Under the pieces are notes generated by a model. The model made no database searches and had not been told where the DNA came from. It worked only from the letters and a program-made list of their open reading frames with translations. Both the position numbers and the translations under genes were made by a program. A DNA stretch of 63,854 nucleotides, the filler included, from a bacterium (GTDB lineage: Bacteria > JAJRZV01), in the NCBI GenBank assembly GCA_024275095.1. It is 7 parts of 7 records of this genome, joined end to end, with 100 filler letters (N's around TTAATTAATTAA, not from the genome) between each part and the next. Parts side by side here need not be neighbours in the genome. Positions count along the whole stretch, not along the records: positions 6,662 to 14,907 come from JAJRZV010000053.1; positions 15,008 to 20,914 come from JAJRZV010000055.1; positions 21,015 to 34,608 come from JAJRZV010000057.1; positions 34,709 to 41,401 come from JAJRZV010000058.1; positions 41,502 to 62,659 come from JAJRZV010000059.1; 2 more parts are not named here. The stretch is one strand, 5' to 3'. Positions 14,191 through 51,033 of the stretch are shown piece after piece; the first letter of the stretch is position 1, and each line of letters begins with the position of its first letter.

Positions 14191-14907
14191 ATGTCCCGAA
14201 TTGAAAGAATTGAACTTTATCACGTATCCGTCCCTTTACCTGCACCGTTTTATCCATCCTGGATTCCGGGATATCCACAACGGGAAAATCGTTTAACCCT
14301 CATCAGGCTTTTGACCTCGGATGGGATCGAAGGAATAAGCGCGGGGCCGGCATTCAGCAGGGAACGAGAAGGTATAGGAAGCGTGTTGGGTCCCTACCTT
14401 CTCGGGATAAGAAGTAATGACTTAGAAACAGTGCGTCAGCGGCTGCGGGAATTATCGTATCTCGGACTGAGAAATCCATGGATAGAACCGGCTTTCTGGG
14501 ACATCCTGGCAAAAGAAAAAGGACTGCCTCTTTACAGAGTGCTCAATCCTTAATGTGGTGTAATAGAGAGTGCCCGCGTATATGCGTCAACCGGAGAGTT
14601 GCGAACAGCATCAGAACGAGATTCATATCTGCAGCAGGTTGCGGATATGGGTATTGATACGGTAAAACTCCGCGTCCATTTCCCCAGCCTTCGGGAAGAT
14701 ATTTCCATGGTAAACGAAATGGTTCAACGATACGGGAGTACTTTCCACTTCGGTGTCGACGCCAATCAGGGGTGGCCAGTCTCAATTATTAAAAAAAGTC
14801 CGACCTGGGACTTGAACCGTGCAGTGGAATTTGCAAAAGCATGTGGTGAGATGAATATCCAGTGGTTGGAAGAACCTTTGGATATGAACGATTACCAGGC
14901 TCTTTCA
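14191..14907 (+). CDS. Mandelate racemase/muconate lactonizing enzyme family; in-frame TAA at 14551-14553; cut by gap
   Basis: AFWDILAKEKGLPLYRVL, then the same frame continues VYASTGE..VKLR..GVDANQGW..WLEEPL. Confidence 0.85.
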
Positions 14908-15007
14908 NNNNNNNNNNNNNNNNNNNNNNNNNNNNNNNNNNNNNNNNNNNNTTAATTAATTAANNNNNNNNNNNNNNNNNNNNNNNNNNNNNNNNNNNNN
15001 NNNNNNN
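14908..15007. other. Artificial contig linker
   Basis: N-run + TTAATTAATTAA + N-run. Confidence 0.99.
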
Positions 15008-15053
15008 ATATCAGTTTAAAAGGTCCACCCTCCTTATTAACAATTTAATAAAC

Positions 15054-16370
15054 CTACTTGCCATAATTAAGAAAATTACTCGATGTAAACATAGAAGCAT
15101 CAATGTCCAGATTGAAAATGGTGGGATTCACCTTTGGATCTACACGGCTGGAGACAGAAGCACGGTTGCGCTTTTCATCTACCACAAAAGATATTTCCGC
15201 GGCTGAAGCCGAAAGTTCTCCATCAGGAGATATGTAGTAACTCTGATTCATTACCTGCGTACGCCAGAAATCACCAGCACGATCCCAGCCCAGTTTAATG
15301 TGAATACGATATGTTTCTTTATCTATAATAAGTATCTGGCGACCAATGCTGTAATACGGATCCTTGGATTTACCCTCAACGAGATATACCGGGCGTTTGA
15401 CCCAAACCCAATTTAAAGGCCACCATGCCGCTTTTTTCTGAGCGGGATGTTCGTAACCCCACTTGACCTGATACCGGGGTTGCATAAACGCCTTTTTTCC
15501 GTATTTTGGAGCAGGAATTCCCTTCCTTGGAAAAGTAACGACTGTTCCCTCAGGTTCATCCGGCAGAAAGGGCACAAGCATTTCCGTTTCTCCTATGAGT
15601 TTCCACTTGAAAAACTCAATCTTCCCTGAATAGCCGTTTACATCGTCAAGAATGTAATCCGTCGGACCTACAGGGTCAGACCTGTTTGCGGATGTTGTTC
15701 GCCTGACTCTTCTTATAGAGGGCACGTATGTCCACGTGGTATCCCACTTGCGCGGTGACTGCCAGCGCCACGTCAGCACTACCGTGCCGAAAAGGTCAGC
15801 AGGAGCGAGGTAGATGGCGTTTTCCATATACGAGACACCGGATTTCACGCCCCTGATCTTTTTCGTGTTGAAATCTATGTTGAACCGGGCCACCTTGCCC
15901 ACAACCTCCACCTCTACAGAATGGCCCTTGAGTGTTCTGAGCACCCACATGGCTTCCTGTGTATTTGTTTGAAGTTCGGTGGCATAGAAATTCCACATGA
16001 TCTTGGTACCGGCCTGGGGGTCAGAAGCCTCGACAGCAGGAAAAGGCAAACCATATGGGAGGGTTATGCGTTTGCCAGTACGGGCTTCTACTATTCCCCC
16101 GTCTTTGTCAACTTTAAAACGACCTTTATTTTTAGAGGAAGCAGCGTAAAAACCAGGAGCATACACCTGTGACATGTCACCCTTTATTTCCCCAACGGTA
16201 ATTTCGTAATCCCCTGTCGCCACACGTTTGGCGACTGACTCCGGAAGTAGATCCTTGTAAGCGTCAATGTTGCTTTTATTAATTTTCATCCCGGGAGACA
16301 GCTCTGCTGCGTGGCTGAAGGCCGGGATGAGCATCACAACTACTGCTTTTATTATCCATTTCCATCTCAT
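15054..16370 (-). CDS. DUF1329 family periplasmic protein (LolA-like outer-membrane sorting fold)
   Basis: Signal peptide; GLPFP, KIMWN, WTYVPSIRRVRR, RSDP, WKLIGE, YSIGRQILIIDKE. Confidence 0.85.
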   Translation of the reverse strand: MRWKWIIKAVVVMLIPAFSHAAELSPGMKINKSNIDAYKDLLPESVAKRVATGDYEITVGEIKGDMSQVYAPGFYAASSKNKGRFKVDKDGGIVEARTGKRITLPYGLPFPAVEASDPQAGTKIMWNFYATELQTNTQEAMWVLRTLKGHSVEVEVVGKVARFNIDFNTKKIRGVKSGVSYMENAIYLAPADLFGTVVLTWRWQSPRKWDTTWTYVPSIRRVRRTTSANRSDPVGPTDYILDDVNGYSGKIEFFKWKLIGETEMLVPFLPDEPEGTVVTFPRKGIPAPKYGKKAFMQPRYQVKWGYEHPAQKKAAWWPLNWVWVKRPVYLVEGKSKDPYYSIGRQILIIDKETYRIHIKLGWDRAGDFWRTQVMNQSYYISPDGELSASAAEISFVVDEKRNRASVSSRVDPKVNPTIFNLDIDASMFTSSNFLNYGK

Positions 16371-16404
16371 ATCATCACCTCCTTAAATTTTTATTACTGA
16401 TACT

Positions 16405-19374
16405 TTACTGTGCCGACTCAGGCTCAAAAATGATCACATACGCAGCTGCTGCTTTGACTTCGTCCAGTTTGAACGGGAACTGCTTGTATCCATTGGCCCA
16501 CCAGTATTTTCTGAGCTGGTTGTCGTAATATTTGCTGCTGGGAATGGCCACATCACCACCGGGGATTGTGGTGTAAGCCACGGGGCCATCTGCCGTCATT
16601 TCTACAATCATTCTGTAAGAAGGTCCTGAACTGTAAGAATAATCACCCTGGCTCTCAGACGTCATCAGATCAAAACCCGGATCTGATGCATCAACCACGA
16701 ACTGACCGCCGTGCCTCGGAAAACCACTGAGTCCAAGAGCATTTATTACTGGATCAAATGGGGACGGGATGTTAAACATCTCAGCTGAATCCTCGGGATA
16801 CGTCTTGGAAGGATCGTCGCCAAGATGACGTACTGTAAGAGTATGGAGCTTGCCCCAGAGCCAATCATCCACGTTGGGACCCAGTTTTTCCGTGAGTCCG
16901 CTGATTGCTTCAACAAAAGCTTTCAAAGCAATGTCATCCCTTGTCTCAACGGTGGTCGAAGTATTCCAGTCGTCCCAGAACACGCTTTCTCCCGTACGTG
17001 CATCACCAGTGTACTGGCATGGTTCACCAGGCTGGAGGTCAGGAGATGCACAGTTTTTGCGTTTGACGATGTTGTAAATGGCACGGGCATATGCCTGTGG
17101 GTGAATTGTTATAGTATTACCGTTTTCGTCCTTTCCGAGCTGGTCATCAAACGTAAAATGTACAAAATTGGACATCCATGCATGAAACACGGCTGCAGCA
17201 ACAGAACTATGAACAGTTGAAGGATCTGATGCAGGAACAAGCGAACCTGTCTCAGGATCGTACACATACCCTGAAGGACTTGTACATGAAGAGGCCCATT
17301 CTTCAATATATCCCAGAGCAGTCAGGGCACTCTCGCTGAGAGTATTTCGATTCTTTTCGGCTGCAGATGTCAGCACATTTACAAAGTCTTCACACAGACC
17401 GAGGTAATCGTCTGCCTGAATGCTCATCATATCATCCACGGTCAGTTTCCTGCCGGAGTTAATCACATCCTCCAGGCGCTGGGTAATGCGGTCTGCACGA
17501 TAGCCAATATCGTAGAAGTATCCGTGATAATATCCATCTACGGTATTGTAGGTCATGGAAAGAGGAAGGTTGTTGGCTGTGACGATGTATCCCTTCTCAG
17601 GGTTTTCAAGCTGGGGTAACTCTTCAGAAGGCCAGTAGCCCTGCCATTCACAGTATCCCACGCCGGGCTGGGGCAAATACAGTGGATTGGGCTGGCCTCC
17701 GAGTTCAGGATTGGTACATTTCGATGGATAGCGTATCGGAATATTTGCATATGGGAACCACCCGATGTTTCCGTCTCTGTCTATGACATTGTGATTCTGT
17801 GCGCCTACTTTGAACTTTTGCAGTGCGTTTTTCGCATCGTCAATACCCTGGGCAGCGAGCAACCCCTTGAAGGCACCCAGCTCATCAGAAGCTTCAAATC
17901 CTGTCCAGCGAACAGTAACGAGATACTCAGGGTCACCATTATCATCCGTAAGCATTCCGACGACCGGGCCATGTCCATCAACAACGTAGTAGGTTACAGG
18001 GAGTATGCATACATCCTGGCCCATACTTTCACTCAGGTCCTGGGGTGTACCAGCATCCACCATCATGTCTTTGAGCTCATCAATAATATCCTGTGATATT
18101 CCACAGGGGTCCTCTGCATCCGAGTCCCGTTGATAAAGAATAAGCTCCACCGCCGAGTCGAGAGGCTTCTGCCCACCCTGTGAAAGCACCACCCAGTCTT
18201 TCATGGCACCGGCAGACGAGACAATTGGTTCCAGATAAAAATCCGTCACATCATAACCGGTTGTCGTTTCTCCCCAGGCCACGTAATCGGTAAATCCAAT
18301 CACTATCCCGGGAGACATGGGAAACATGACACCTGCGGCGTTAAGGGTCCCTCCCATGGCCTTGGTGTTGATGTGCACTTCATGAAACACGGGAGGCTGC
18401 TGAAGCGAAAGATGAGGGTCATTGGCGAGAATGGGATTGCCTGAGCTGGTCAGCTCGCCCCTCACACTCCAGTTGTTGGATGTGGGCTGTAAGCCTGTAA
18501 TCCTGCGAAGAAGCTTCATGTAACCCTTAAAAGATTGAATTGCTCCTTTTGCAGCAAGAGGTGGAGTCACGGCGGATGTCACAGCTCCAACTGCTCCGCC
18601 GGAACCAGGCTGATCGATTACGGCTCCACGAACTGGATATACGCTGAAAATATCCTGGAGCCACCCGAGGGCCGTGGTCTGTGCTGAGGTGACATCCGAG
18701 GCATAACCCCGCGCGAGAAGTTGCCCTGTAATGTTTTCCCAGATATTCATAAATTCCAGACCAAAGGTGCCTTCATCATCAAAGCTCAGCAGAAATGTCA
18801 TGAGTCTGGCAAAAGCAAGTGAATCTATTGCTGACCATCCAGGTTCTCCGTCCGTCCCCAGTATTCCTTCGTAAATGGTGGCGGGATTCGTTATGCCCTG
18901 CGCGACGAATTCCAGAGGCATATCCTCGATACTCATGCTTTGCAGGTAAGCGTTTACACCCTCTGCGTAGCGATCGAGAAATTCTTTCTCGGTATCATCC
19001 AGAAGAGTTTTGTATACCTCCACAGCCACATTGAAAAAGCCCATCATGCGTGCCTGCACGTCGGTAGGAATATAACTCTGGCCAACAATGATAGAAAGCT
19101 GGCCTGTTGCAGCTCCGCGTTGAATGATCATCTGAAAAAGCCTGTCATGGGCATGAATGTATCCCTGCACAAAAGCCACATCACCCTCGTTCGCTCCATA
19201 AATATGAGGCACTCCGTAAATATCTCTGACAACTTCCACGCTGGAGATAAGCCCTGTCAACTTCACGACTTCATTAGCAGCCAGTCCTGTTGCCGGACCT
19301 GTACCTGCACTTTTTTTACTACACCCTGCGGCGAGTAACACCGCTGCCGCAAAAATGGTAAACCACTTTTTCAT
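16405..19374 (-). CDS. Penicillin acylase family Ntn-hydrolase, lipoprotein
   Basis: Lipobox AAGC; RDIYGVPHIY, QGYIHAHDRLFQM, catalytic SNNW, ILANDPHL, WGKLH, GPSYRMIV; ATG 19374 behind AGGAGGT. Confidence 0.92.
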   Translation of the reverse strand: MKKWFTIFAAAVLLAAGCSKKSAGTGPATGLAANEVVKLTGLISSVEVVRDIYGVPHIYGANEGDVAFVQGYIHAHDRLFQMIIQRGAATGQLSIIVGQSYIPTDVQARMMGFFNVAVEVYKTLLDDTEKEFLDRYAEGVNAYLQSMSIEDMPLEFVAQGITNPATIYEGILGTDGEPGWSAIDSLAFARLMTFLLSFDDEGTFGLEFMNIWENITGQLLARGYASDVTSAQTTALGWLQDIFSVYPVRGAVIDQPGSGGAVGAVTSAVTPPLAAKGAIQSFKGYMKLLRRITGLQPTSNNWSVRGELTSSGNPILANDPHLSLQQPPVFHEVHINTKAMGGTLNAAGVMFPMSPGIVIGFTDYVAWGETTTGYDVTDFYLEPIVSSAGAMKDWVVLSQGGQKPLDSAVELILYQRDSDAEDPCGISQDIIDELKDMMVDAGTPQDLSESMGQDVCILPVTYYVVDGHGPVVGMLTDDNGDPEYLVTVRWTGFEASDELGAFKGLLAAQGIDDAKNALQKFKVGAQNHNVIDRDGNIGWFPYANIPIRYPSKCTNPELGGQPNPLYLPQPGVGYCEWQGYWPSEELPQLENPEKGYIVTANNLPLSMTYNTVDGYYHGYFYDIGYRADRITQRLEDVINSGRKLTVDDMMSIQADDYLGLCEDFVNVLTSAAEKNRNTLSESALTALGYIEEWASSCTSPSGYVYDPETGSLVPASDPSTVHSSVAAAVFHAWMSNFVHFTFDDQLGKDENGNTITIHPQAYARAIYNIVKRKNCASPDLQPGEPCQYTGDARTGESVFWDDWNTSTTVETRDDIALKAFVEAISGLTEKLGPNVDDWLWGKLHTLTVRHLGDDPSKTYPEDSAEMFNIPSPFDPVINALGLSGFPRHGGQFVVDASDPGFDLMTSESQGDYSYSSGPSYRMIVEMTADGPVAYTTIPGGDVAIPSSKYYDNQLRKYWWANGYKQFPFKLDEVKAAAAYVIIFEPESAQ

Positions 19375-19435
19375 GGCTGGCACCTCCTGATTAATTTTTG
19401 GACACTCCTTCATATCACGCTTCTTTCGTCGCTGG

Positions 19436-20914: not shown

Positions 20915-21014
20915 NNNNNNNNNNNNNNNNNNNNNNNNNNNNNNNNNNNNNNNNNNNNTTAATTAATTAANNNNNNNNNNNNNNNNNNNNNNNNNNNNNN
21001 NNNNNNNNNNNNNN
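20915..21014. other. Artificial contig linker
   Basis: N-run + TTAATTAATTAA + N-run. Confidence 0.99.
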
Positions 21015-21321
21015 AGGGAATCTGATCAAGAAGATTTTTAAATATAAAAAATTCAATTGAAATGCCGCGTGCAACCATAATAAAATAAGAAAAAACAAAA
21101 AGTGTTGCAAACGACTGCATTTGATTTATATGTATAGACAAAACATAAACTCAGAACATAGTGATATAAATTAATAGAGAAAACATAAATGCTCAACAAA
21201 CAAAAAATAAAGAAAACCGTAAATAATAAAACAAAAAGCCAAAAAAACAGCTGCTGTGGGCAGTCAATAATTTTGTCAAAAACACAAGAATGGCCATTCA
21301 AATTACCAGGGGTGCTTCCTG

Positions 21322-23793: not shown

Positions 23794-26700
23794 CAGCCGT
23801 TCCGTTTCGATACTTATGGGGTTTCCATTCAATATTCCACTTTCTTTCATAGCGCCTTTTGTTCTCTTCAAAAATCCGGTTGTATTCTTCATCACTTAGC
23901 TTTTTAAAAGTCGCTCCACCAAAGTGATGAATAAATACATCTTCTGCGCATATCAGCCTGTATCCAGCTTTCTTGACACGGAGGCAAAAATCATCATCCT
24001 CGAAAAAACCAATGGAAAACTGTTCATCGAGACATCCCACCTTTTCGATAACGTGTTTTTTTACAGCAACGCAGTAAAAGGCAAGAACGTCAATGGGAAA
24101 CCACTTGCCCTTATTTGCTTTTGTGTACCTCTCGGCGAACTCTTCCATCTCACTAAGGTTTGTATAATCCACGTCAATTTTTGCCTCATTGCCAATGCTG
24201 TTTGTTACAGGGCCGACCATACCGAGATCCTCAACGAGATCAAAATACCTGATCAGGCCTCCCAGCCATCCTTTCGTTACTACGGTATCATTATTGAGAA
24301 ACACGATGAAGTCACCTGTAGATGCCTTGATACCCTGATTATTTGCGCCGGCGAATCCTTTATTCTCATTGTTGAATATAACTTTTACATTGCCGTTTTG
24401 CTTTGAAAGTTCATACAGATATTCACGCGTCCCGTCGTGCGATGCGTTATCAACAACGATAACTTCAAAATTCGGATATGCGGTCTTCTCGAAAAGACTG
24501 TTAAGGCAAAGTCTCGTGTAATTCAAGTTATTATGAGTGACCACAATGATACTTACCTTGGGGTACATCTGCCTTATCTTTTCCTGCAGGCGACTGAAGC
24601 GCTTGTCCCAGTTGTTTCTGTAAGCAGTGGTGATTCTTTCTTTCCTGAAACGACGAGGATCTTCAGAAATCGCTTTCTTAACATTCTGTAGAAACTCCTC
24701 GTGGGTTTCAGAAACGTACGCAATACGCCTTAACGTCCTGAGCTCCGGTAAAGCTGTTGTTACAACAGGTTTCCCAGCACTTATGTACTCATAAAACTTG
24801 ACGGGATCGGTAGACTCTATCAGCTTGGTTACCTTAAACGGGATTAAACACACATCAAACCAGTAGAGGTATCGAGGCAACTCTGAATAAGGCTTTTCAC
24901 CGAGCAAATAAACATTTTTATACTTTTTGAGTTTTTCAACGTCTGAGCCAAAAGTGTGTCCTATCAATACAAAGCTGGCCTCTTTATGAGCCTTAACAAC
25001 TTTCTCAAGCAACTCGGTATCAAACCATTCCGATATTGCTCCGTAGTATCCGATTATGGGTTTTTTGAAATCTTTGAGTAGCTCATTCTGGGGAGGATTA
25101 AAAAAATGATGAAAATCTACTCCATTCTTAACAAGATATGTTTCTTTTTTATGCTCTTTGATTTTGTAGAAAAGTTTCAATGATGAAGTAATACACATAT
25201 CTGACAACTCAACGAGTAATTTTTCATCATTCAGTACAATCTCACCAAGATCCTTGAATTCGCTGAACTCATCGAGACAATCGTAAACCAACTTAAAATG
25301 TCTTCTACTCCTTTTGAGTTCTTCAGCGAATCTTCTCCAGTTTGGAAGTTGTACAATCATTACACATTCTTTCACGCCACAATCATCCACAAGCTTTTCA
25401 AGTGCAAGCATCATCTTTGAGTGGTCATTTTCATCAGCTGTAGAGTAAATATCGTATATAAGAAAATCCTTCTCAGCAGGTAGTTTCACCTCGTAAACAT
25501 TATCAGCAACTTTCCTTATCTGATAATCTCCCCCTTTCTTCACATTTACGCTGAGGTAGAAAACCCTGTGGCCATTACGTGCAAACCGGGTGGCAAAATG
25601 CTGTGGCCTCTGAAACCTGAAATCCCAATCTATAATCGAAAAAAAGATTACATCATACTTGTACACTCCCCTCCGGCTTTCACGTACGGCTTCCTCTACC
25701 GGAATAGGATTCTGATGTACACTTCTTTTTCTTGGATACTTTACGCGCGACCATATGCGTGTAACAACACCTCTCAGCCCCTCATCGCGCCAGACCCTGA
25801 AAACCCGATGCACAAAAGAAAGTACGACACTTCGGGTGGCCATCCTCCAGTACCACGTCGCCACTTTCCACCAGGTAGTTGCTTTGATATTTTCAAGCTC
25901 TTGAAGTAAAGATTTTGTGTACGACTCCAGGCTCTCCACTCTCTGAGCAAGCACGTTGTTTCTTTCCTGGAGCAAATTAATCTGTCCCTGAAGCCGGGCG
26001 TTTTTACTGATTTCCTGATGCAATAGTTTTTCCTCATGATCCAGCTTTCGTTCAACCCTCTCTCTGACTTCTCTCTCTTGTTCAATCTGCTTTTCGAGAA
26101 CCTGTTTCTCAGCCAGGAGTCTTTCGCGCTCTGACCTGAGTGCCCTGGTCTCTTTGTCCAGTGAATCCGTAAGATAGGACAAACGAACTTTCTCAAGGCT
26201 CACCCATTGCATGTGTGCATATACACATAAAAACTGCTTCCCTCCCCAAAAACGCTCCTCCATTTTTGCACAATCGATTTCCCTGAAAAAGACGAGATAA
26301 AAATCACCCACCCTTAGAGGAAAGTTGTTGTAGTCAAAAGTGAAAAAGTGCTCAAAATCCCGTTCTGTCTCCCTGAAAGGAGCAAGAATCACCACGTACT
26401 TCCTGGCTTTGTCCATCATTTTTTTCAGAAACTGAAAGGGGCGGTCAAAATGCTCTATCGTGTTCGAGCAATAGATGACATCAAACTTTTCTTCAATAGC
26501 GTCTATGTCGCTTGTCACAAATTCTCTTAAGGGATAATATTGTCTTGCTTTTTTGATCGCCTCTTCTTAAATATCCACCCCGACAATTTTTGAATCTGGA
26601 AAACGACGGGCCAGCATTTCAACAGCATCTCCTTCTGCGCAGCCCAGGTCCATAATACTGAGATGGTTTCCTTCAATATCGCTGATAATCCATTCAGGAA

Positions 26701-26818: not shown

Positions 26819-26906
26819 GATGCCAGGTCATTATACTGAATCACAAATAATCTGGTAAAGGAACGCTCTCTCGAAGTGAACTCTGCAGGCAATAAAAAAG
26901 CTGATT

Positions 26907-29311: not shown

Positions 29312-29328
29312 GGGTGTTGTTCACACTC

Positions 29329-38106: not shown

Positions 38107-38128
38107 CTGACTTCTTCACCTTGTTTTA

Positions 38129-41401: not shown

Positions 41402-41501
41402 NNNNNNNNNNNNNNNNNNNNNNNNNNNNNNNNNNNNNNNNNNNNTTAATTAATTAANNNNNNNNNNNNNNNNNNNNNNNNNNNNNNNNNNNNNNNNNNN
41501 N
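41402..41501. other. Artificial contig linker
   Basis: N-run + TTAATTAATTAA + N-run. Confidence 0.99.
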
Positions 41502-42202
41502 AAAACGTCACTGTGAGTGAGAGCCCGCAAAAGAGTGGATTTTCCCGAGTTCGTATAGCCTACGAGTGCAAAAGAGAGCATTTCAGAAAGGCGACGCTTT
41601 CGATGTTGAGATCTCCTCTGTCGAATTTTCTCCAGGTCATTTTTGAGTTTTCGGATGCGTCGAAGGATCTTGCGGCGGTCAACTTCAAGCTGTTTTTCAC
41701 CCGGACCACGCGTGCCTATACCACCGCCCAACCTGGAAAGTTCTCTCCCGCGTCCAACAAGGCGCGTGAGCATATATTGAAGCTGGGCCAACTCAACCTG
41801 TATTTTACCTTCGTTGGTCCTGGCACGCTGTGCAAATATGTCCATAATAAGCCTGGTGCGGTCGAGAATTTTCACGCTTAATTTTTCCTCAAGATTACGC
41901 TGTTGGACAGCCCTGAGTGCATCATCAAACACAACCATTTCTACCCTGGCTTCTTCCACAATACCACGAATCTCATGGACTTTGCCGCGACCGATGTAAT
42001 ATGCAGGATCGGGACTTTCTCTTTCCTGGACAACACGTGCCACAACAACTCCTCCTGCTGCCTTGACAAGGCCCTCCAGTTCATCCAGGCTTTCAGCCAC
42101 TTCTCTCCTGGAAATTCCTTTCTTGCGAAGCGCCACAATAACAGCTCTTTCACGTGCAGAACTATTGTCATGAAATGAAGATAGCGGGTGCAAATTCACC
42201 AT
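41502..42202 (-). CDS. hflX: GTPase HflX (3' end cut by gap)
   Basis: DRTRLIMDIFAQRA, QVELAQL, GGGIGTRGPGE, G1 GYTNSGKST. Confidence 0.96.
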
Positions 42203-42211
42203 AAGGAAATT

Positions 42212-45200
42212 TTAACCGGAATAAAAAACTTCCGCACTGTATTCCTTTTTAAATCGTTCAATTAATGACTCGCTGAAAGATACTCCAAATTCATCAGGAA
42301 GTGCCAAAACAGCCTCAAAACCCGAGGGGTAACGCAGGTACAGGAAAACCTTTATTCGCCCTTTGTGTTCCATAAGGATACCCCTTACTTTTTCAACATC
42401 ATCTTCAGAAAGCCCCACCGTATTGATTCGTATGTGTACACTCTTTGCAAACCGTCTGCGGGCTTCGTTAAAAGGGTAAACCTCCAGAGCCACGATTCTT
42501 GCTTTTCCCTCTGTATGGCTGTCAACCCGGCCCTTTATAATCAACACCTGATCTTCTATCTTTTCAGGGAGTTTTTTCAACGTATCCTCAAACATAAATA
42601 CCTCAACAAAACCCGTTACATCTTCCAGTATCAAGGATCCGACGGGTGTCCCCTTTTTGGACTTGCGCGATGCAAATCCGGTAGCAATACCTGCAACGAT
42701 AACCTCTTCAGAACGCACACGGCCGTGAGACAACTCATCTGCGGTAGTAGTAATGTACGGCCTGATTTTTCGCCACTGCTTTTCCAGAGGATGGCTGGAC
42801 ACGTAAAAACCCGTAACTTCCTTTTCATACTTGAGTAATACAGGCTCGGGCCATTCTTCCATTTCGGGTATTTCAACACGGGGCTTCACGCTGTCCGGTG
42901 AAAACATGCTTATCTGGTGCTGGTTCGTGTGTCCGCGGCTGAAAACCTCCACAATATGATCCAGAGCGGCCATCATCTGTGCTCTTTTATAGCCGCTGAA
43001 ATCAAAAGCACCTGCTTTAATCAAACTCTCCAGCACTCTCTTGTTCACCTTTCGGGAGTCCACACGAGAAGCAAAATCGACAATATCTTTGAATTCTCCC
43101 TCTTCTCTACACCGCAGAATTTCCTCTACAGCATTAAATCCTACATTCTTGATACCGGCAAGGCCGAACCGTATGGCATCTCCCTCAACAGTAAACCGAT
43201 CGAGAGAGCGATTCACATCCGGCGGCAAGATGCGTATACCCATTTCACGGGCAGCATTGAGATACTTTACTATATCGTCTGGTCTGTTAAAGGACGCATT
43301 CATGAGGGCGGCAAAATACTCCACTGGATAGTGGGCCTTCAAATAGGCTGTGATGTAAGCAAGGTAACCGTAAGCAGCACTGTGAGATTTGTTGAAACAG
43401 TACTCAGCGAACTTGCGAATGTTGTCAAACAACTCCTGAACTTTCTGACGCGGGAACCCGTTCTTCACCCCTCCCTCAACAAATTTTTCTTACAGTTCTT
43501 CCATCTTCTCACGCACCTTCTTACCCATGGCATACCTGAGCGTATCGGCTTCACTCATTGTGAATCCTGCTATTACCCGTGCGATCTCCATTACCTGTTC
43601 CTGGTACACGATCACCCCATACGTTTCTTCCAGCACGCTTTTAAGCGCTGGAAGTTCATAAGTGATCCTTTTGCGTCCGTGTCTGCGCTGAATAAAATCG
43701 TCCACCATTCCCGTCTCCAGCGGGCCCGGACGAAACAGTGCAACCGTGGCAATAAGATCAGAAAGCTTCTGAGGCTTCAGACGCCGCACCACCTCTGTCA
43801 TTCCCGGATTGGACAGCTGAAACACACCCTGTGTCTGACCCTCGGAAAGCATTTTGTAGGTAGCTGCGTCATCGAGCGGAATATCCTTTATATTGACGTC
43901 CTTTCCTCGATTCTTTTTCACCAGCTCAACGGTCTCGTAAATTGCGGTAACAGTATCGAGAGCCAGCAGGTCCAGCTTTACGTAACCGAGCCTGTCCACC
44001 ACATCCTTATCAAATTGTGTTGTCGGCACATTGCCTTTTCCTGCAAAAACCGGTAGTGATTCAATAACGGGTTCGGGGGTAATCACCAGCCCACCCGGAT
44101 GTGTTCCTGCCTGACGTACAACCCCCTCTATTCTCATCGCCACATCCACCATCTCCCTCATTTTTTTATCCTTGCGGTAAAGCTCTTTCAAGGGACCGGA
44201 CATTTCCAGAGCTTCCTTCAGGCTCTTCACACGTTCAGGGATCATTTTGGCGATTTTCTCCGTGTCACCAGTACTCACGCCATAGGCACGGCACACATCC
44301 CTGAGGGCCTGCTTCGCTCTCATGGTCTGAAATGTACCCACAAACGCAACGTGGTCTTCACCGTATCTTTTTCTCACGTACTCAATTACTTCATTGCGCC
44401 GTTCTTTACATACATCCACGTCAATGTCAGGGAGGGTCACCCTGTCGGGATTGAGGAACCTTTCAAAAAGCAAGCCATACTTGATTGGGTCTATATCCGT
44501 AATCCTCAGCGCGTACGAGACCAGGCTCCCGGCAGCAGAACCCCTGCCAGGCCCCACCGGTATACCGTTGTTTTTTGCAAAATTGACAATATCGGCAACA
44601 ATAAGAAAGTACTCGGCAAAACCCAGCTTGTTAATCATTTCAAGCTCGTGATTCAACCGGTCCACATAAACCTTCTCATCCGGCTTCCCCCCTGCTTCCT
44701 TCATTTCATCAAGTCGCTTTTTGAGACCTTCACGTGCTGTCTGACTCAAATACTCAGCAAGCGATAATTGCCCGGGAACCTCAAAGCGTGGAAAGTGTGG
44801 CTTGCCAAACTCGATTTCTACATTACACATTTCCGCAATTTCCAGCGTATTGGCAAGTGCCCTTTCTATGTGGCCGAAATGGGCTTCCATTTCCTCCGGC
44901 GATTTAAAATAAAATTCCTGGGATTTAAACCTGAAACGGTTTTCATCAGTAAGTTTATTGCCGGTTTGAATGCACAAGAGCACCTCGTGCACACTCGCAT
45001 CTTCCCGGTACAGGTAGTGCACGTCCGCGGTAGCAACGAGTTTAATATTCATACGTCTCGCCAGATCGAGGAGCCCTTCGTTAACAATACGCTGCTCTTC
45101 TATTCCATTTTCCATAAGTTCAAGATAAAACCTGTCCCTGCCGAAAAGAGACAGGTAAAATTCTGCTATTTCCTCCGCTTTCTTCTGGTCCCCTCTGAGC

Positions 45201-45652
45201 AGATAGTAAGGGATCTCCCCGTGCAAACATGCAGAACAGGCAATAAGTCCCCGGCTGTGCTGCTGGAGCAATTCTTTATCTATGCGGGGTTTATAATAAA
45301 AACCTTCTGTAAAGGCACAGGACGAAAGCTTTTGTAGATTTTTAAGGCCGATATTATCAACGGCCAGGAGTAAAAGATGAAAAGCGTAGCCTTCCACTTT
45401 TGATTCCCTTTTTTTCTCCTTTCGGCTTCCTGGAGCAACATAGGCTTCCATTCCTATAATAGGCTTGATGCCATGACGAGACATTTCTTCGTAAAAGGGG
45501 ATTATTCCGTGCAAATTGCCATGATCGGTCAAAGCCACAGAATTCATGTTAAACTTCTTAACCATCGGGGCGAGTTCATTAAACCGGATGAATCCGTCCA
45601 GCATGCTGTACTGACTGTGAAGGTGCAGGTGAACAAATGCTTTCTTGCCCAT
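42212..45652 (-). CDS. dnaE: DNA polymerase III alpha subunit; one in-frame TAA at 43490-43492
   Basis: PHP HLHLHSQYSMLDG, GRGSAAGS, FERFLNP, PDIDVD, YQEQVM; KMEEL*EKFVEG continues in frame to FNKSHSAAY, HhH and OB domains. Confidence 0.96.
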
Positions 45653-45690
45653 GGTCTTTAGGTTACAGCCAGGTCATCAAAAAGGCAAGC

Positions 45691-46977
45691 TCACCTGTTT
45701 GAATAAAATCTGCTCTTTTTGTTTTCAATGGCGGCTTCGTAGATTTCGTTAAGTTTTTGAAGAAAAATAATGAGTTCTGAAACATCAGTCGGGGTAAAAC
45801 GATCGGGTCCCCCATCACCGTACAGTACATTAACCACCTTTCCGCGGAAAATCACGGGGATGAGGAAAGCACTCTTTGGAGGGTCACCGCCCAGGATGTT
45901 AATAAACATTTCATCAACAGGCGAAGGAAACAATGGTCCAATGTAATGGGCTCGAGAACGCACCACAAATCCAAAAGTAGAGCGCTCATCCACCGTGAAT
46001 ATGGCGGTCCTCAGGCGCTGTCTCACCTCGTCTGGCGCGGCCGCGTCCCATCCCATGATGAAACCCTTACGCACGGTAAAAATAGCCACCCTCTCAAAAA
46101 AGTTGGATGCAAAGCCCAGCACACCTCTTGCGATCTCGTCACGCGATGAAGCACTTTTCAATAACGCATCAGCCTCTCCGCGAGAGAGCACAGGTATTGC
46201 TTCATCCAGGGACTCGGTAAGTTCAATTTCTTCCTCTGCTGGCTCAATCTCCTCTTCCACTTCTTCAAGAAGAAGAATCTCTTCCTCTTTCTCTTCCTCT
46301 TTTGGCTCTTCTAAACTTTCGCCTTCCTCTTTTTCCTCCTCCACTTCTTCTCTTTGTTCTTGTATAGCCTCTTCCATTGCCCAGCGAGCCTTTATGTCCT
46401 CTGGTACCTCAATTTCAGGTAATTCTTCTTCCACCTCTTCCTTTCTTTCTTCTACCAGTTCCAGGCCCCTGCGCCTGCGTTTCTGGTAAGCCTCGCGTGT
46501 CTCCCTCATGGTCAGCGTGACGAAGCGAGGGTCCCGACGTATGCCGTAAAGTTTCTCAAGCAAAAGACGAAATGTAACCTCAGGGACCACAAGAGGTTTT
46601 ATGCGTTTGCCCAGCTTGAATTCAGCCTCTTCCAGGGCCTTCAAATCACCGGGGTCGAGCACAATGGCAATAACTTCCCTCCCTGAAGAACGAAGCGGTA
46701 TCACACCTGTCTTTTCCACTGTCTGGCGGTCAAGTGCACCAAGCATGCTGCGGTCAAGTTTGCGCAGATCCTCTAATCGAACAGGTGGAACTTTATGATA
46801 CTCAGCAAGCGCCTTTGCCAGCTCTCTCTCAGTAATGATACCCATATCCAGCAAATTGGTACCAAGCCTGCCTCCGAAAACAAACTGGGCACTGATTGCT
46901 TCATCAAGCTCTTCCTGGCTGATATACCCCTTGCGTACAAGGAATTCTCCAAACAATTCTCTGCCTCTTGCACTCAT
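45691..46977 (-). CDS. GspE-N/MshEN domain protein without ATPase; acidic linker and GAF-like C-terminal domain
   Basis: FGEFLVRKGYISQEELDEAISAQ and RLGTNLLDMGIITERELAKAL; no Walker A. Confidence 0.75.
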   Translation of the reverse strand: MSARGRELFGEFLVRKGYISQEELDEAISAQFVFGGRLGTNLLDMGIITERELAKALAEYHKVPPVRLEDLRKLDRSMLGALDRQTVEKTGVIPLRSSGREVIAIVLDPGDLKALEEAEFKLGKRIKPLVVPEVTFRLLLEKLYGIRRDPRFVTLTMRETREAYQKRRRRGLELVEERKEEVEEELPEIEVPEDIKARWAMEEAIQEQREEVEEEKEEGESLEEPKEEEKEEEILLLEEVEEEIEPAEEEIELTESLDEAIPVLSRGEADALLKSASSRDEIARGVLGFASNFFERVAIFTVRKGFIMGWDAAAPDEVRQRLRTAIFTVDERSTFGFVVRSRAHYIGPLFPSPVDEMFINILGGDPPKSAFLIPVIFRGKVVNVLYGDGGPDRFTPTDVSELIIFLQKLNEIYEAAIENKKSRFYSNR

Positions 46978-48260
46978 TCAGCCGCCTCTGCTTCCTCGAG
47001 TGTCGTTTCTACAGGAGATATTTTTACACGTTCACCTTCCCACCGGGATACAACCACAGATCCCGTCACATCCGACCACACGTTGACTGTGGTACGCATC
47101 ATATCCAGCACGCGGTCAACTGCGAGAATGAGCCCCACACCTTCGAGAGGTAAGCCCACGGCTTTCAGCACCACCGCAAGCATAACCAGACCGGCCATGG
47201 GAATACCTGCGGCACCGACAGAAGCGAGAAGAGCTGTTGCTGCAACAATCATCTGTTGCCCAAACGAAAGATCTATCCCGTATGCCTGCGCAACAAACAC
47301 CGCTGCCACACATTCGTACAGTGCCGTCCCATCCATATTCACCGTAGCCCCAAGTGGTAGCACGAAACCGGCAATTCTATTCGGGATGCCAGCTCCCCTC
47401 TCCGCTCTCTCCAGTGTAATGGGTAAGGTAGCAGACGATGAACTGGTGGAAAAAGCTGTGAGCAATGCAGGAGACACGGCTCTGCATATTTTTACAGGAC
47501 TTGTACCACCGAGAACTCTCTGGATAATGGGCAGAGTTACAAAGGCATGAAAAGCCAGGCCCAGTGTCACTGTTACAGCATACTTACCGAGGAAAGCAAA
47601 AGTTTCCATGCCAGAGCGGGCAATTGTTGCCGCGATAAGTGCAAAAACACCGATCGGAGCGAAACGGATAATAAGACCCGTCATGTCCATCATAAGCTCG
47701 AAAATTCCCTCAACCAGGGTTACAAGAGAATGTCTTTTCTCCTCATTTTTCATACGGATGATAAAAAAGCCGCATAACAGAGCAAATATGATTATCTGAA
47801 TCATATTACCATCTGCCAGGGCTTTTACCGGGTTGGCAGGCAAAAGATTGACAAGGACGTCGCTCAGACTGCCCGAAAAGCTTTTCACCTGGTGTGGGAC
47901 AAAACCTGCTGAGAGGTTGGCCCCGGCGCCTGGCCTGATAACGTTCACAAGCAATTGCCCTGTAAATATGGCTGCAAGGCTTGAAAGTATGTAATAGACG
48001 AATGTTTTTCCTGCCAGCCTGCCCACAGCTCTACTTCCTGCACCAAATGTCCCGGCTGCAACAGATGCAAATACCAGAGGCACGATAATCATCTGGAGTG
48101 CTCGAAGAAACAGTTTACCCAGCGCCTCAACTTTCAGGGCGAATCCTGGAAAAAAGTATCCTGCTATTGCACCGAGCACGACACCTGCACCAATCTGCCA
48201 GTGGAGGGGTACTTTACTAATTGTTCTTGCAAATCCCTTCATCACTTGGCATTTTTTCAC
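46974..48260 (-). CDS. Dicarboxylate/amino acid:cation symporter (DAACS, GltP-like)
   Basis: AFSTSSSSATLP, GATVNMDGTALY, DRVLDMMRTTVNV. Confidence 0.95.
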   Translation of the reverse strand: MKKCQVMKGFARTISKVPLHWQIGAGVVLGAIAGYFFPGFALKVEALGKLFLRALQMIIVPLVFASVAAGTFGAGSRAVGRLAGKTFVYYILSSLAAIFTGQLLVNVIRPGAGANLSAGFVPHQVKSFSGSLSDVLVNLLPANPVKALADGNMIQIIIFALLCGFFIIRMKNEEKRHSLVTLVEGIFELMMDMTGLIIRFAPIGVFALIAATIARSGMETFAFLGKYAVTVTLGLAFHAFVTLPIIQRVLGGTSPVKICRAVSPALLTAFSTSSSSATLPITLERAERGAGIPNRIAGFVLPLGATVNMDGTALYECVAAVFVAQAYGIDLSFGQQMIVAATALLASVGAAGIPMAGLVMLAVVLKAVGLPLEGVGLILAVDRVLDMMRTTVNVWSDVTGSVVVSRWEGERVKISPVETTLEEAEAAE

Positions 48261-48340
48261 AGCAGCGTCCCTGTCTCAAGCAGAGAATATAGCAAATATT
48301 TCCTTGAGTAAGAGCTCTGGGTGAATAAAATGATGAAATC

Positions 48341-49927
48341 ATGAAAAAGACAATTCTTAATTTCGGTCTTGCAATCCTTTCTTCTCTCCTGTTTGCGCTT
48401 TCGTTCCCATCAGCAGGAATATTCCCCCTGATGTTCATATCCATTATCCTGCTGCTCCTCGTCCTTGAGCAATTTGCTTCATCCTCTCGGGCTGCATGGG
48501 CGGGTTTCCTGTGGGGTTACGCCGGGGGGGTATTCACACTTTACTGGCTCGTTTATACCCTGGGCACATACGGAGAAATGCACTGGCTCCTGGCACTCAT
48601 CACATTCCTGCTGATGAATGCGTACCTCTCAATTTATCCTGCCGGGCTCTTTTACATTCTTTACAGGATGCGCCCTCTGAACGACTCGCTGTGGAAGCCT
48701 GCGGCAGCTGCTGCGCTTTTCACGGCCATGGAATACCTTCGAGGCAACGTACTTACGGGATTTCCGTGGACTAACATCGGTTATGCTCTTGCACAGTGGA
48801 AAATCTATGCACAGGCGGCAGACCTGGGTGGTGTATATCTTCTAACTTTTGTGACCGTGTTTATAAGTGCACACGGCTATTGTGCCTTATCCAGCATCAG
48901 TAACAAAAAATCCCGAAATAAAATCTCCCATTTTGCACTCTGTGCGTGTGGGCTGGCACTGTTACTTCTCTATGGTGCGTATGCACAGCTCGCGTATCAA
49001 CAATCATCTTCATCTCGAAAAATTGCATTCGCCGTAATTCAGGGCAACATAGACCAGGCCCAGAAATGGGATCCCGCATATCGCAGGGCCACCGTGGATA
49101 AATACCAACGCTTAACGCTATCAGCCCTCCGGAAGGGACCGGTGGACCTCGTTATCTGGCCAGAAACGGCGACACCGTTTTTCTTTCGGCACAGTTTCAC
49201 CTGGAAAGACACAATAAAAGACTTTGTACGGAGTATTTCCACGCCTCTCTTTTTCGGTACCCCGGACTACGAATTCACAAAAGGTCGCATCCGCTACCTC
49301 AACACTGCACTGCTTCTCTTACCTTCAGGAGAAATAAAAGGCATGTATAGAAAAGTACACCTTGTACCGTTTGGAGAGTTCATACCACTTTATGACTACC
49401 TTAAATTTCTTGCAAAACTTTTCCCTGCCGCAGGAATCTTTTCATCGGGAACCACTCCGGCTCCCGTGCCCTGGAATTCCACCATCCTTGCACCTCTTAT
49501 ATGCTATGAGGCCATATTTCCAGAATTGACGCGCATACAGGTGAGAGAGGGAGCAGCCTTTCTCATCAACATCACAAACGATGCGTGGTTTGGCAAAACC
49601 TCAGCCCCTTACCAGCACTTTAACATTTCAGCATTGAGAGCAATAGAGATGCGACGTCCTCTCGTAAGAGCCGCCAACACGGGCATTTCAGGTGCTGTGG
49701 ATCCATCAGGTCACATGCTGTTCAGCACATCCATATTCACTGATGCAGCAGAAAGAGTGGAGGTTAGGGTACCCCTTATGAAAAAAACACTTTATCTCGT
49801 GTGGGGAGACTGGTTCGCGTTACTGTGTCTTTTTGTATCTGGATTTGTGATGTTAAGATTATGGTCTCATGAAAAAACCTGGCAAGTTATAATATCTACA
49901 AGGAGGCATGATGGAAACACTGCGTGA
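48341..49927 (+). CDS. lnt: Apolipoprotein N-acyltransferase
   Basis: TGFPW, QGNI, WPE, KVHLVPFGEF, ICYE, TNDAWFG, RAANTGIS. Confidence 0.96.
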   Translation: MKKTILNFGLAILSSLLFALSFPSAGIFPLMFISIILLLLVLEQFASSSRAAWAGFLWGYAGGVFTLYWLVYTLGTYGEMHWLLALITFLLMNAYLSIYPAGLFYILYRMRPLNDSLWKPAAAAALFTAMEYLRGNVLTGFPWTNIGYALAQWKIYAQAADLGGVYLLTFVTVFISAHGYCALSSISNKKSRNKISHFALCACGLALLLLYGAYAQLAYQQSSSSRKIAFAVIQGNIDQAQKWDPAYRRATVDKYQRLTLSALRKGPVDLVIWPETATPFFFRHSFTWKDTIKDFVRSISTPLFFGTPDYEFTKGRIRYLNTALLLLPSGEIKGMYRKVHLVPFGEFIPLYDYLKFLAKLFPAAGIFSSGTTPAPVPWNSTILAPLICYEAIFPELTRIQVREGAAFLINITNDAWFGKTSAPYQHFNISALRAIEMRRPLVRAANTGISGAVDPSGHMLFSTSIFTDAAERVEVRVPLMKKTLYLVWGDWFALLCLFVSGFVMLRLWSHEKTWQVIISTRRHDGNTA

Positions 49928-51033
49928 AAACATACAGGAGTTGCGCAGAAAATTCGAGAACATAAGGGGGTATCTTTGACGTTGAAAGCCTGCAACGTGA
50001 ACTTGAAGAAATAGAAAAAACTTTCGCCAGCGAGGAAACCTGGAAAAATCCGGAGAAAGCAGCCTCTCTGAACAAGAAAAAAAGTGACATAGAAAAAATA
50101 CTTTCTCGAGTAGATGAAGCTGCATCAAACATAGAAGAACTCGAAGCATACGCGGAACTTCTTGAAGAAGAACCTGACCAGGAAACGCAGGAGGAAGCGC
50201 AGAGGTTGTTGTAAAAAGTGGAATCCGAGCTTCATTCCCTGGAGATAGAACGACTGTTCAGCGGTGAAAACGATCACAGAAACGCCATTCTTTCCATTCA
50301 GGCAGGAGCCGGAGGAACAGAAGCCATGGACTGGGCGGAAATGCTCCTGCGCATGTACCTGCGCTACGCAGAAAGGAAAAATTTTGATGTGGAAATTGCT
50401 GACATTCAGCACGGTGAAGAAGCAGGCGTAAAAAGTGCAACCGTCTTCATCCGCGGGCGAAATGCCTACGGCCTGCTCAAGGCAGAAAGCGGAGTTCACC
50501 GGCTCGTGCGTATATCACCGTTCGACGCGAACCACCGCCGGCATACGTCTTTTGCTTCGGTCAATGTAATACCGGAAATAGATGACGATATAAAAATTGA
50601 AATCAAACCTGATGATTTAAAAATCGAAACCATGAGAGCCTCCGGCCACGGCGGACAGCATGTCAACAAAACCGAATCTGCCGTACGCATTACTCATATC
50701 CCCACTGGAATTGTTGTCCACTGCCAGAGCGAACGTTCACAGCACCAGAACAAAGCCACCGCCATGAAAATCCTGAAAGCACGGCTGTACGAACTGGAGC
50801 TCAAAAAGCGCATGGAAGAAAAGGAAAAACAATACGCTCAACAGAAAAAAATTGAGTGGGGAAGTCAGATCCGCTCTTATGTACTCCATCCTTACAAAAT
50901 GGTTAAAGACCACCGCACGGGCGTGGAATCCCCCACGCCGGACCGTGTGCTTGACGGGGAGCTGGACGAATTTATAGAGGCGTACCTGCTTCAGCAGCAA
51001 TCAGAAGAAACCACGGCAGCACAGGCCAGGTAA
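49911..51033 (+). CDS. prfB: Peptide chain release factor 2; programmed +1 frameshift at 49974-49980 plus in-frame TAA at 50212-50214
   Basis: AGGAGG RBS; AGGGGG-TAT-CTT-TGA-C slip site; [21 protein letters not shown]. Confidence 0.96.
49965..49980 (+). promoter_or_regulatory. prfB programmed +1 ribosomal frameshift signal
   Basis: Internal SD AGGGGG, 3 nt, CTT TGA C. Confidence 0.95.

Follow-up and report, generated by a model that had tools for sequence, protein, structure and literature searches.

The window, that is, the whole 63,854-nucleotide stretch of DNA that was analysed, consists of seven contigs of one 2.45-Mb genome in 136 contigs, with N linkers between them. An earlier note had described four otherwise intact genes on three contigs that each carry one in-frame TAA, with the frame and the family motifs continuing on both sides. 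All four codons were confirmed, on contigs C15, C19 and C21, and domains or homologue alignments run across each of them (Table 1).

Table 1. Coordinates, in the window, of the four interrupted genes and their in-frame TAA codons
Feature	Position	Strand	Basis
Mandelate racemase/muconate-lactonizing-family gene, 5' part, truncated by contig end	14191..14907	+	translation, Pfam
In-frame TAA no. 1 (mandelate racemase/muconate-lactonizing-family gene)	14551..14553	+	sequence, translation
Methyltransferase/glycosyltransferase fusion gene, 1010 aa	23786..26818	-	translation, Pfam
In-frame TAA no. 2 (methyltransferase/glycosyltransferase gene)	26567..26569	-	sequence, translation
dnaE (DNA polymerase III alpha, 1146 aa)	42212..45652	-	translation, Pfam
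In-frame TAA no. 3 (dnaE)	43490..43492	-	sequence, translation
prfB (release factor 2)	49910..51033	+	translation, Pfam PCRF + RF-1
In-frame TAA no. 4 (prfB)	50212..50214	+	sequence, frame entered after +1 shift

The mandelate racemase-type gene has its MR_MLE_N (residues 30-117) and MR_MLE_C (148-238) domains on either side of the stop (X121), and all 120 full-length homologues align over it, with 35 Glu, 20 Asp, 14 Lys, 13 Gln, 10 Thr and other residues at the column. Stop X84 of the methyltransferase/glycosyltransferase gene is covered by Methyltransf_31, _12, _25 and _11 matches (residues 52-144); this query returned one homologue, with Ser at the column. For dnaE, DNA_pol3_finger (567-732) covers X721, and 120 of 120 homologues align over the site with Arg (101), Lys (14), Glu (3) or His (2), Glu being the residue of the best-scoring homologue. 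The earlier note was right that the expected residues differ between sites, the last two genes giving Ser (in that one homologue) and Lys/Arg. A search of 5.8 billion proteins gave a best DnaE homologue of 61% identity, and an exact-pattern scan of the dnaE stop region gave 0 matches in metagenome contigs from which records of the same or a very near genome were possibly excluded.

In prfB, PCRF (6-195) covers X79, the RF-1 domain follows, and SPF and GGQ are legible in the translation, while the stop column is variable in 17 relatives (3 Thr, 3 Glu, 2 Lys, 2 Gly and others). The gene also carries a shift cassette, AGGGGG-N3-CTT TGA C, at about 49962-49980 (CTT TGA C at 49974-49980), and the +1 frame leads from it into PCRF and RF-1. 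This cassette is the normal, canonical programmed +1 frameshift signal of prfB, a true recoding signal. The TAA lies 78 codons past the shift site and has no relation to the signal.

Stops of this kind are spread over the whole 2.45-Mb genome. Same-frame stop junctions with a coding signal on either side were screened, and a stop was counted as lying within a gene if one Pfam domain or protein spanned it. This was the case for 30 of 262 junctions, with 19 TAA, 9 TAG and 2 TGA, so the pattern of TAA only, seen in the window, does not extend to the genome. The spanned stops amount to about 1 per 80 kb and about 1% of genes, essential and non-essential alike, among them dnaE, prfB, rplC, valS, accC, leuA, proB, lon, mfd and sufB. 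Their density varied little with contig size (0.9-1.7 per 100 kb across the classes), and small contigs, with size as a proxy for coverage, showed no enrichment. The number of in-frame stops is above chance: in a control genome (G010) the same screen gave none spanned among 43 candidates in 295 kb, against the 30 found here. A crude frameshift screen, which looked for a coding signal right after an upstream stop and without a start codon, gave 42 segments without clear stop-type bias. For dnaE, prfB, rplC, valS and the others all to be broken is impossible in a living cell, which counts for defects in the sequence.

At the stop columns, Glu was the aligned residue in ProB (10/10), M16 (22/24), the PDE-like protein (4/4), the hydrogenase small subunit (2/2) and AOR (9/13), and every strongly conserved column among the stop sites is Glu. 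Other columns hold Ala or Ser (7 and 2, M50), Asn, Ala, Ser or Asp (6, 2, 1 and 1, DAGK), Leu, Met, Ile or Val (5, 1, 1 and 1, Lon) and, at the TGA of SufB, Leu, Lys, Arg or Met (3, 3, 2 and 1). None of the sites with aligned homologues falls at a conserved Gln or Trp column, and the suggestion that Gln would be tolerable at all four window sites found no support, the strongly conserved columns being Glu. Random codon replacement, such as planted stops, was rejected, every strongly conserved column lying one base step from the observed stop.

No close relative was found, all 20 relatives being related at the domain level only; over 21 sites, none of 198 aligned rows from other genomes has a stop. 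In G001, which is closer to the present genome than any other searched, all 17 sites with a match are sense codons. An ABC-permease site (TAA, contig C128) had no match in the 5 genomes searched, and paralogues of an IS256-type transposase have Thr (ACC) at its TGA, from which the original codon is not deducible. The earlier note's case against recoding stands, with sense codons at the sites elsewhere and no single residue common to them. Programmed site-specific recoding of the selenocysteine or pyrrolysine type, for which sites conserved among relatives and limited to certain gene families are expected, is not supported by the same 198 rows or by the targets, which are unrelated housekeeping genes.

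The assembly contradicts itself at one site: contigs C93 and C26 overlap at their ends, and the ORF that both contain there reads GGA in one contig and TGA in the other. Overlaps between contig ends are typically exactly 141 bases long, and 81 of 100 show no mismatch, which indicates a k-mer graph (de Bruijn) assembly. The coexisting variants in these overlaps are mostly synonymous, apart from the GGA/TGA pair. When polarised by distance to the contig end (n=42), they were C>T in 15 cases, C>A in 9, T>C in 8, T>G in 4, C>G in 3 and T>A in 3; they are not dominated by G>T, which counts against sequence defects as the source of the stops.

G001 (88% complete, 240 contigs) contains independent in-frame stops of all three kinds; of 40 candidates screened in 394 kb, 4 are spanned. 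TGA replaces a Gly that is found in 8/8 other relatives and in the present genome; TAA occurs at Ser-, Gln- and Tyr-type columns, and among the genes with TAA are pdxJ (CAG in the present genome) and holB (TCA in the present genome). The stop sites are not common to the two genomes, since those of G001 are sense codons here, as the present ones are in G001. Internal-stop 'pseudogenes' are familiar from low-quality draft and metagenome-assembled genomes, where they are likewise scattered single nonsense codons in intact conserved genes, unconserved in relatives, and the fragmented draft G001 shows such stops too. The present genome differs from that picture in its unusual bias towards substitutions and towards TAA and TAG. 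The disagreement between C93 and C26, the independent stops of G001 and the clean result for G010 point to sequence defects.

Normal termination uses all three stop codons. Among ORFs of 300 codons or more, 1224 are terminated, 446 by TAA, 112 by TAG and 666 by TGA, so that 45% end with TAA or TAG. TAA stands at the conserved gene ends of L21-TAA-L27, S19-TAA-L22 and atpB-TAA-atpE, and the two examples of normal TAA ends already given in the earlier note were confirmed: a glnA copy (4579-6003) closes ...LYFDI-TAA, and the gene at 59531-60265, assigned there to pdxJ, also ends with TAA. The release-factor motifs are PVT and GGQ in RF1 and SPF and GGQ in RF2. Both pairs were found, RF2 together with its UGA-dependent frameshift cassette, so that prfA, which had been marked for inspection, encodes an intact RF1, and both factors look canonical in sequence. 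A tRNA with a UUA anticodon, also proposed for a search, was absent, as were CUA and UCA anticodons, among 45 tRNAs found by aragorn and 43 found with Rfam RF00005. The set is incomplete, aragorn having found no tRNA-Asn, tRNA-Ile(GAU) or tRNA-Ala(UGC), and the anticodon arms of tRNA-Glu, Gln, Lys and Tyr are normal. Duplicate tRNA-Gln(UUG) genes were rejected as suppressors, being two identical copies with an ordinary anticodon arm at contig ends.

These observations bear on an alternative code in which TAA, with or without TAG, would stand for a single amino acid, either Gln or Glu. Such a code would explain in-frame TAA and TAG within conserved domains and the Glu aligned at the most conserved sites. 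However, such codons are present in only about 1% of genes, they align with inconsistent residues (Glu, Ser/Ala, Leu, Lys/Arg and Asn), hundreds of genes end with TAA or TAG, conserved C-termini among them, no cognate tRNA was found in either search, and both release factors are intact. Reassignment is already contradicted by the present tests and retains hardly any probability. The nuclear codes of peritrich ciliates and Blastocrithidia, in which UAA and UAG are read as Glu or Gln and UAA still terminates, likewise have TAA and TAG at Glu columns and TAA at gene ends, but there the codons occur in most genes, with cognate tRNAs, altered release factors and one residue per codon, none of which is found here. 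UAA/UAG-to-Gln reassignment in eukaryotes is mentioned in PMC8629427.

The stops could also be real and read through, by a suppressor tRNA that was not assembled (for instance an ochre-type tRNA inserting Glu) or by leaky termination, with nonsense codons accumulating as nearly neutral changes. Twenty-eight of the 30 are TAA or TAG, the pair read by ochre suppressors, TGA is below expectation, and all strongly conserved columns affected are Glu; the incomplete tRNA set leaves room for a missing gene, and the phenomenon is common to the two most similar genomes and absent from 19 others. Laboratory ochre suppressor strains of Escherichia coli tolerate UAA and UAG and not UGA, which resembles the 28:2 split, whereas no suppressor tRNA gene was found here and G001 has in-frame TGA too. 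We know of no natural genome of this kind. Efficient suppression would lengthen many proteins, given the 45% of long ORFs that end with TAA or TAG, and it would have to work beside canonical RF1 and RF2 and with no suppressor among the 45 (aragorn) or 43 (Rfam) tRNAs. The sites differ between the present genome and G001. No one suppressor fits G001, where TGA stands in place of an invariant Gly and TAA in columns of Ser, Gln and Tyr type, and Glu would be unlikely within the membrane helix of M50 or in the Lon column, which is hydrophobic. The self-contradiction of the assembly at C93/C26 also speaks against readthrough, which is considered very unlikely. A deep-branching lineage, comprising the present genome and G001, with dozens of decoded nonsense codons in essential genes and in an early, ambiguous phase of stop-codon capture is given only a slender chance. 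Should the stops prove real and decoded, the genome would be the first example from a natural bacterium of UAA/UAG nonsense codons being tolerated in essential genes, and it would inform the study of stop-codon capture.

The substitution spectrum was deduced from the aligned residues. Of the 25 sites that were examined, 16 are consistent with G>T/C>A changes, 2 are not (Lon and SufB) and 7 lie at variable columns. The fitting steps are GAA or GAG to TAA or TAG at Glu columns and changes from TCA or TCG at Ser-type columns, while the Leu column of Lon and the Leu/Lys/Arg/Met column at the SufB TGA require another kind of substitution and count against a simple G>T account. The suggestion in the earlier note that all four window stops could be single G>T/C>A changes extends to most informative sites of the genome and not to these two. 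The mix of stop types is compatible with two transversion models, one with G>T alone (p=0.13) and one with purine-to-T changes (p=0.21), and not with a transition-rich natural spectrum (p=0.001). TGA is scarce, with 2 of 30 against 5.7-6.9 expected (P(<=2) = 0.02-0.06). Glu sites number about 12, whereas none of the 30 stops is a GGA>TGA change (P = 0.035), and at each of the 16 Glu/Ser-type sites the G>T change has a 5'-GA context (P about 0.001). Context-free damage does not predict these features, which count against defects, and the defect reading does not account for the TGA shortage.

The earlier note had further suggested the signature of 8-oxoG damage. The 8-oxoguanine shearing artefact is described by Costello (2013, PMC3616734) as C>A/G>T changes in a CCG>CAG context, with low allele fraction and read-orientation bias. 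At the fitting sites the substitution class agrees, G>T on one strand being C>A on the other, and would account for most of the informative Glu- or Ser-to-stop changes. The context given there does not agree, since the changed G precedes A at all Glu/Ser-type sites; the changes here sit in the consensus, in contrast to the low allele fraction in that description, and two sites need other substitutions.

The changes might instead be true, undecoded mutations in the sampled cells, from a mutator (e.g., one deficient in the repair of oxidised guanine) or from a decaying or mixed population, with the gene copies broken and their nonsense alleles taken into the consensus by the assembler. A k-mer graph generally retains sequence seen repeatedly, by which the variants would probably be present in more than one read, and the mostly synonymous coexisting variants of the overlaps, together with the GGA/TGA pair, resemble natural strain polymorphism. 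Nonsense alleles of dnaE, prfB, rplC, valS and accC, however, cannot be the majority allele in a living clonal population. Natural mutation is dominated by the C>T class, of which the stops show little, with no conserved Gln or Trp columns and with the poor fit of the transition-rich model (p=0.001). This origin is regarded as unlikely.

Quite probably, the in-frame stops are point-substitution defects, many of the G-to-T type, that belong to the sequence of a short-read de Bruijn assembly. Defects are favoured by stops that are genome-wide and not gene-specific, by the lack of a single residue and by the non-conserved sites. On the best reading, the four window stops are part of a genome-wide scatter of single-base defects in a draft and not an unusual reading of the code, the cause of the defects being one that we infer; the preference of the earlier note for an artefact is upheld over recoding in the same conditional sense. 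Errors, or damaged or minority template molecules, would have entered the consensus of a short-read metagenome assembly, possibly through oxidation or depurination of the DNA, through amplification of scant template (whole-genome or by heavy PCR), or where coverage was locally thin. The living organism would have ordinary sense codons at the sites and would follow the standard code, terminating at TAA, TAG and TGA alike. It counts against defects that contigs reach 74 kb, which suggests coverage above minimal; random damage should then miss the consensus, unless template was scarce or had been amplified.

As artefacts, the stops would be a matter of quality control, the present genome and G001 carrying about 1 nonsense substitution per 80-100 kb. 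At such a rate there would also be several hundred missense and silent errors, which are invisible. Essential genes such as dnaE, prfB and rplC will be broken up by gene callers, and such assemblies could mislead screens for pseudogenes, gene loss or alternative codes.

A comparison of the 30 stop contexts by eye gave no shared flanking sequence. By eye, too, 13 of the 28 TAA/TAG stops were seen to be preceded by T, a weak tendency compared with the 28% of T among third codon positions.

The four in-frame TAA codons of the window were confirmed on contigs C15, C19, and C21 of the genome under study (G000), where an earlier note had placed them. Both halves of the frame belonged to one protein at each site, and domains or homologue alignments crossed all four stops, which bears out the claim that frame and family continue on either side (Table). 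The stop of the racemase-family gene was aligned across by 120 of 120 full-length homologues. The prfB gene contained the cassette AGGGGG-N3-CTT TGA C, which we take to be the classical autoregulatory +1 frameshift signal, and its TAA sat in the frame reached through the cassette. Such a textbook cassette in prfB means that the organism uses UGA as a functional stop recognised by RF2.

Table. Coordinates of the in-frame stops and of other features in the window and elsewhere in the genome
Feature	Location	Strand	Remark
In-frame TAA, racemase-family gene	window 14551-14553	+	residue 121; between N- and C-terminal family domains
In-frame TAA, methyltransferase-glycosyltransferase gene	window 26567-26569	-	residue 84; methyltransferase domain 52-144 spans stop
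In-frame TAA, dnaE	window 43490-43492	-	residue 721; DnaE finger domain 567-732 spans stop
In-frame TAA, prfB	window 50212-50214	+	residue 79; PCRF domain 6-195 spans stop
prfB frameshift cassette	window 49962-49980
Glutamine synthetase, two copies on one contig	window 1759-3171; window 4579-6003	-; -
tRNA-Gln(UUG), two copies	window 63776-63847; C24:7953-8024		identical; one at contig end
Overlapping contig ends	C93:9555-9880; C26:6034-6359		326 bases; outside window
Coding-looking frame with two TAA	contig C32, L042:16440-17291	-	TAA 78 codons apart; upstream of GAF domain
IS256/Mutator-family transposase with in-frame TGA	C2:1-1131		outside window

The genome is a draft of 2,453,167 bases in 136 contigs (97% complete, 47.8% G+C), and the window, being seven of these contigs with 100-base N linkers, is no single genome stretch. 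Contig ends overlapped end-to-end in 100 cases; 81 of the overlaps were mismatch-free and the typical length was exactly 141 bases, which marks the assembly as the output of a k-mer graph method, presumably a MEGAHIT-type assembler. The remaining 19, longer overlaps carried 1-6 mismatches each; within coding frames most of these were synonymous, suggesting strains that coexist in the sample. It is nevertheless unlikely that the stops are genuine mutations, left undecoded, of a mutator or heterogeneous population, since a majority allele of this kind is impossible in essential genes of living cells. The 20 comparison genomes were related at domain level only, the best DnaE homologue was 61% identical, and the source names among the best matches included Thermodesulfobacteriota and Desulfurobacterium; its lineage seems to have no close relatives among the organisms sampled so far.

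The whole genome was screened with a dicodon coding score trained on the 1250 stretches that ran for 300 codons or more without a stop. A junction was a stop preceded and followed, in one and the same frame, by 60 or more open, coding-scoring codons. There were 262 junctions (120 TAA, 99 TGA, and 43 TAG), all of which were translated through the stop as X and scanned against Pfam. Most were adjoining genes in the same frame, such as L21/L27, S19/L22, atpB/atpE, and nuoA/B/C; CRISPR-associated genes (DevR/Cas7-like, Cas6, and Cas2) on contig C76 (locus L082) were also among the same-frame neighbour pairs. One domain or one protein crossed the stop in 30 of the 262. The 19 TAA genes included the [NiFe]-hydrogenase small subunit, ribosomal protein L3, NadB, ValRS, malic enzyme, a type II/IV secretion ATPase, Mfd, and the four window genes, while the 9 TAG genes were a diacylglycerol-kinase-like protein, Lon, LeuA, AccC, ProB, aldehyde:ferredoxin oxidoreductase (AOR), M16 peptidase, M50 peptidase, and a PLD-domain protein, and the 2 TGA genes were SufB and an IS256-type transposase. 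Six further junctions (five TAA, one TAG) are probable in-frame stops. The 30 stops were spread over 28 contigs, and their density was 0.9-1.7 per 100 kb whatever the size class of the contig; the four window sites sample something that occurs throughout the genome. That all four are TAA holds for the window and was a small-sample impression genome-wide. Partial paralogues of the transposase on C69, C91, C22, and C99 lay at contig ends, were 86-96% identical over the matching parts, and had Thr (ACC) at the TGA column. In the frame on contig C32, the two TAA may either interrupt a single gene or separate three small ones.

The aligned residue and codon were read at 25 of the 30 sites from homologues in 20 genomes (five of them for some sites) and, for dnaE, the racemase-family gene, and the methyltransferase, in a large protein collection. 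The strongly conserved columns were all Glu, as in ProB (10/10), M16 peptidase (22/24), the class-II phosphodiesterase-like protein (4/4), the hydrogenase small subunit (2/2), AOR (9/13, all well-aligned rows included), and group-1 glycosyltransferase (2/3). Among four ValRS rows, the most similar had Glu and three had Asp; Glu was the residue of the most similar sequence or the plurality in LeuA and the secretion ATPase, and the plurality in the racemase-family column (E35 of 120). The dnaE column was R101 K14 E3 H2, with Glu in the best-scoring homologue. Ser-type columns were found in M50 peptidase (A7 S2), the kinase-like protein (A, A, and S in the three closest rows), the methyltransferase (Ser in the sole homologue), and AccC (S4 of 23, variable). 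Lon (L5 M1 I1 V1, implying TTG>TAG) and the SufB TGA (L3 K3 R2 M1) did not fit G>T, and the remaining sites examined were variable columns. Judged from these alignments, no one amino acid is common to all stop sites, and certainly not Gln, which had been thought tolerable at all four. The commonest inferred events were GAA>TAA, GAG>TAG, and TCR>TAR, which agree with the G>T/C>A class already proposed.

No stop was found at the aligned positions in other genomes (0 of 198 rows at 21 sites, with 5 gaps), and the most similar genome searched (G001) matched 17 of the sites and had a sense codon at all of them. By these sense codons and the inconsistent aligned residue, recoding is refuted on the terms which the earlier note had set. 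Long ORFs ended in TAA (446), TAG (112), and TGA (666), conserved protein ends among them, as had been remarked for TAA. The two glutamine synthetase copies ended in ...LYFDV-TGA and ...LYFDI-TAA, and a P-II protein gene lay upstream of the second copy in the same frame (Pfam P-II then Gln-synt_N). RF1 was present with PVT and GGQ and RF2 with SPF and GGQ, motifs which we take to identify both as ordinary release factors. No tRNA with anticodon UUA, CUA, or UCA was among the 45 found by aragorn or the 43 found by the Rfam tRNA model, a set that was incomplete (Asn, Ile-GAU, and Ala-UGC missing), so that this negative falls short of proof, and the anticodon arms of the Glu, Gln, Lys, and Tyr tRNAs were ordinary. 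The two tRNA-Gln(UUG) genes may be one gene assembled twice. About 1% of genes carried an in-frame stop, far below any reassigned codon, and reassignment is extremely improbable. A Codetta screen covering more than 250,000 genomes of bacteria and archaea names, in its abstract, no new reassignments other than those of arginine codons (PMC8629427).

The end of C93 and the start of C26 overlapped in the same ORF with 2 mismatches, both G/T differences: C93 read ...STS-TGA-FSQ... and C26 ...STS-GGA-FSQ..., and the second was a synonymous CTG/CTT. At this position, then, the data contain both a sense codon and the nonsense codon that a G>T change would make of it. Real stops read through via a suppressor tRNA or leaky termination would suit the TAA/TAG bias and the restriction of invariant columns to Glu, but this reading is very unlikely given the missing suppressor tRNA, the canonical release factors, the heavy normal use of TAA and TAG as terminators, the unconserved stop sites, the Ser-, Leu-, Gly-, Gln-, and Tyr-type columns hit, and this self-contradicting overlap.

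G001, a draft of 240 contigs (88% complete) with the highest identities in most searches, had in-frame stops of its own (loci L298, L360, L364, L377, L379, and L381). Its M50 peptidase carried a TGA where 8 of 8 other relatives and G000 have Gly, and both TAG and TAA occurred in an M16 paralogue. Across 393,949 bases, taken from its largest contigs, a domain spanned 4 of the 40 candidates, namely a radical-SAM gene (TGA), a PKD-repeat gene (TAA), holB (TAA; TCA in G000), and pdxJ (TAA; CAG in G000). A B12-radical-SAM gene is a further probable TGA case, with Gly (GGA) at the column in G000 paralogues. The same pipeline gave 0 of 43 candidates in 294,554 bases of the control genome (G010, 99% complete), and about 300 matches to the same genes in genomes other than G001 gave none. 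Three flagged matches were rejected, those in G010 and G011 lying at gene ends and that in G014 having no stop in the aligned region. Nonsense codons of all three kinds thus occur at similar density in both drafts, independently and at non-homologous sites; a data or assembly problem would be expected to give this picture, a conserved decoding mechanism would not. The in-frame stops are most likely not biological, and the preference for artefact over recoding is upheld in outline by the stop-free rows elsewhere, the C93/C26 conflict, and the independent G001 stops.

The stop mix of 19:9:2 was tested against four substitution models with codon usage as the opportunity set. The mix was compatible with G>T/C>A only (p=0.13) and with purine-to-T transversions (p=0.21), less so with uniform substitution (p=0.02), and least with a transition-rich spectrum like that of natural mutation or cytosine deamination (p=0.001), which favours damage-type transversions. 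Such transversions can arise from oxidised guanine and from abasic sites copied with A. The fit was not clean. TGA was rarer than any model expects (P(<=2) = 0.02-0.06), GGA>TGA events numbered 0 vs about 12 Glu sites (P = 0.035), and 16 of 16 Glu/Ser-type events were G>T changes at a G preceding A (P about 0.001). The contig-end overlap variants, polarised by distance from the contig end (n=42), were mixed (C>T 15, C>A 9, T>C 8, T>G 4, C>G 3, and T>A 3). The TGA shortage may be chance, because G001 does show Gly-to-TGA. The artefact suggested earlier is supported in outline as one of the G>T/C>A class, but its attribution to the classical 8-oxoG signature is not: the published shearing-oxidation artefact occurs at low allele fraction and in the context CCG>CAG (PMC3616734), whereas the Glu/Ser-type events here were G>T followed by A. 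The changes could have entered the consensus where templates were few or had been amplified, where fragments were duplicates, or where coverage was locally thin. Extrapolated from about 30-60 nonsense events, with roughly one-tenth of G/C sites able to give a stop (an estimate), the G000 assembly and G001 would carry substitution errors on the order of hundreds.
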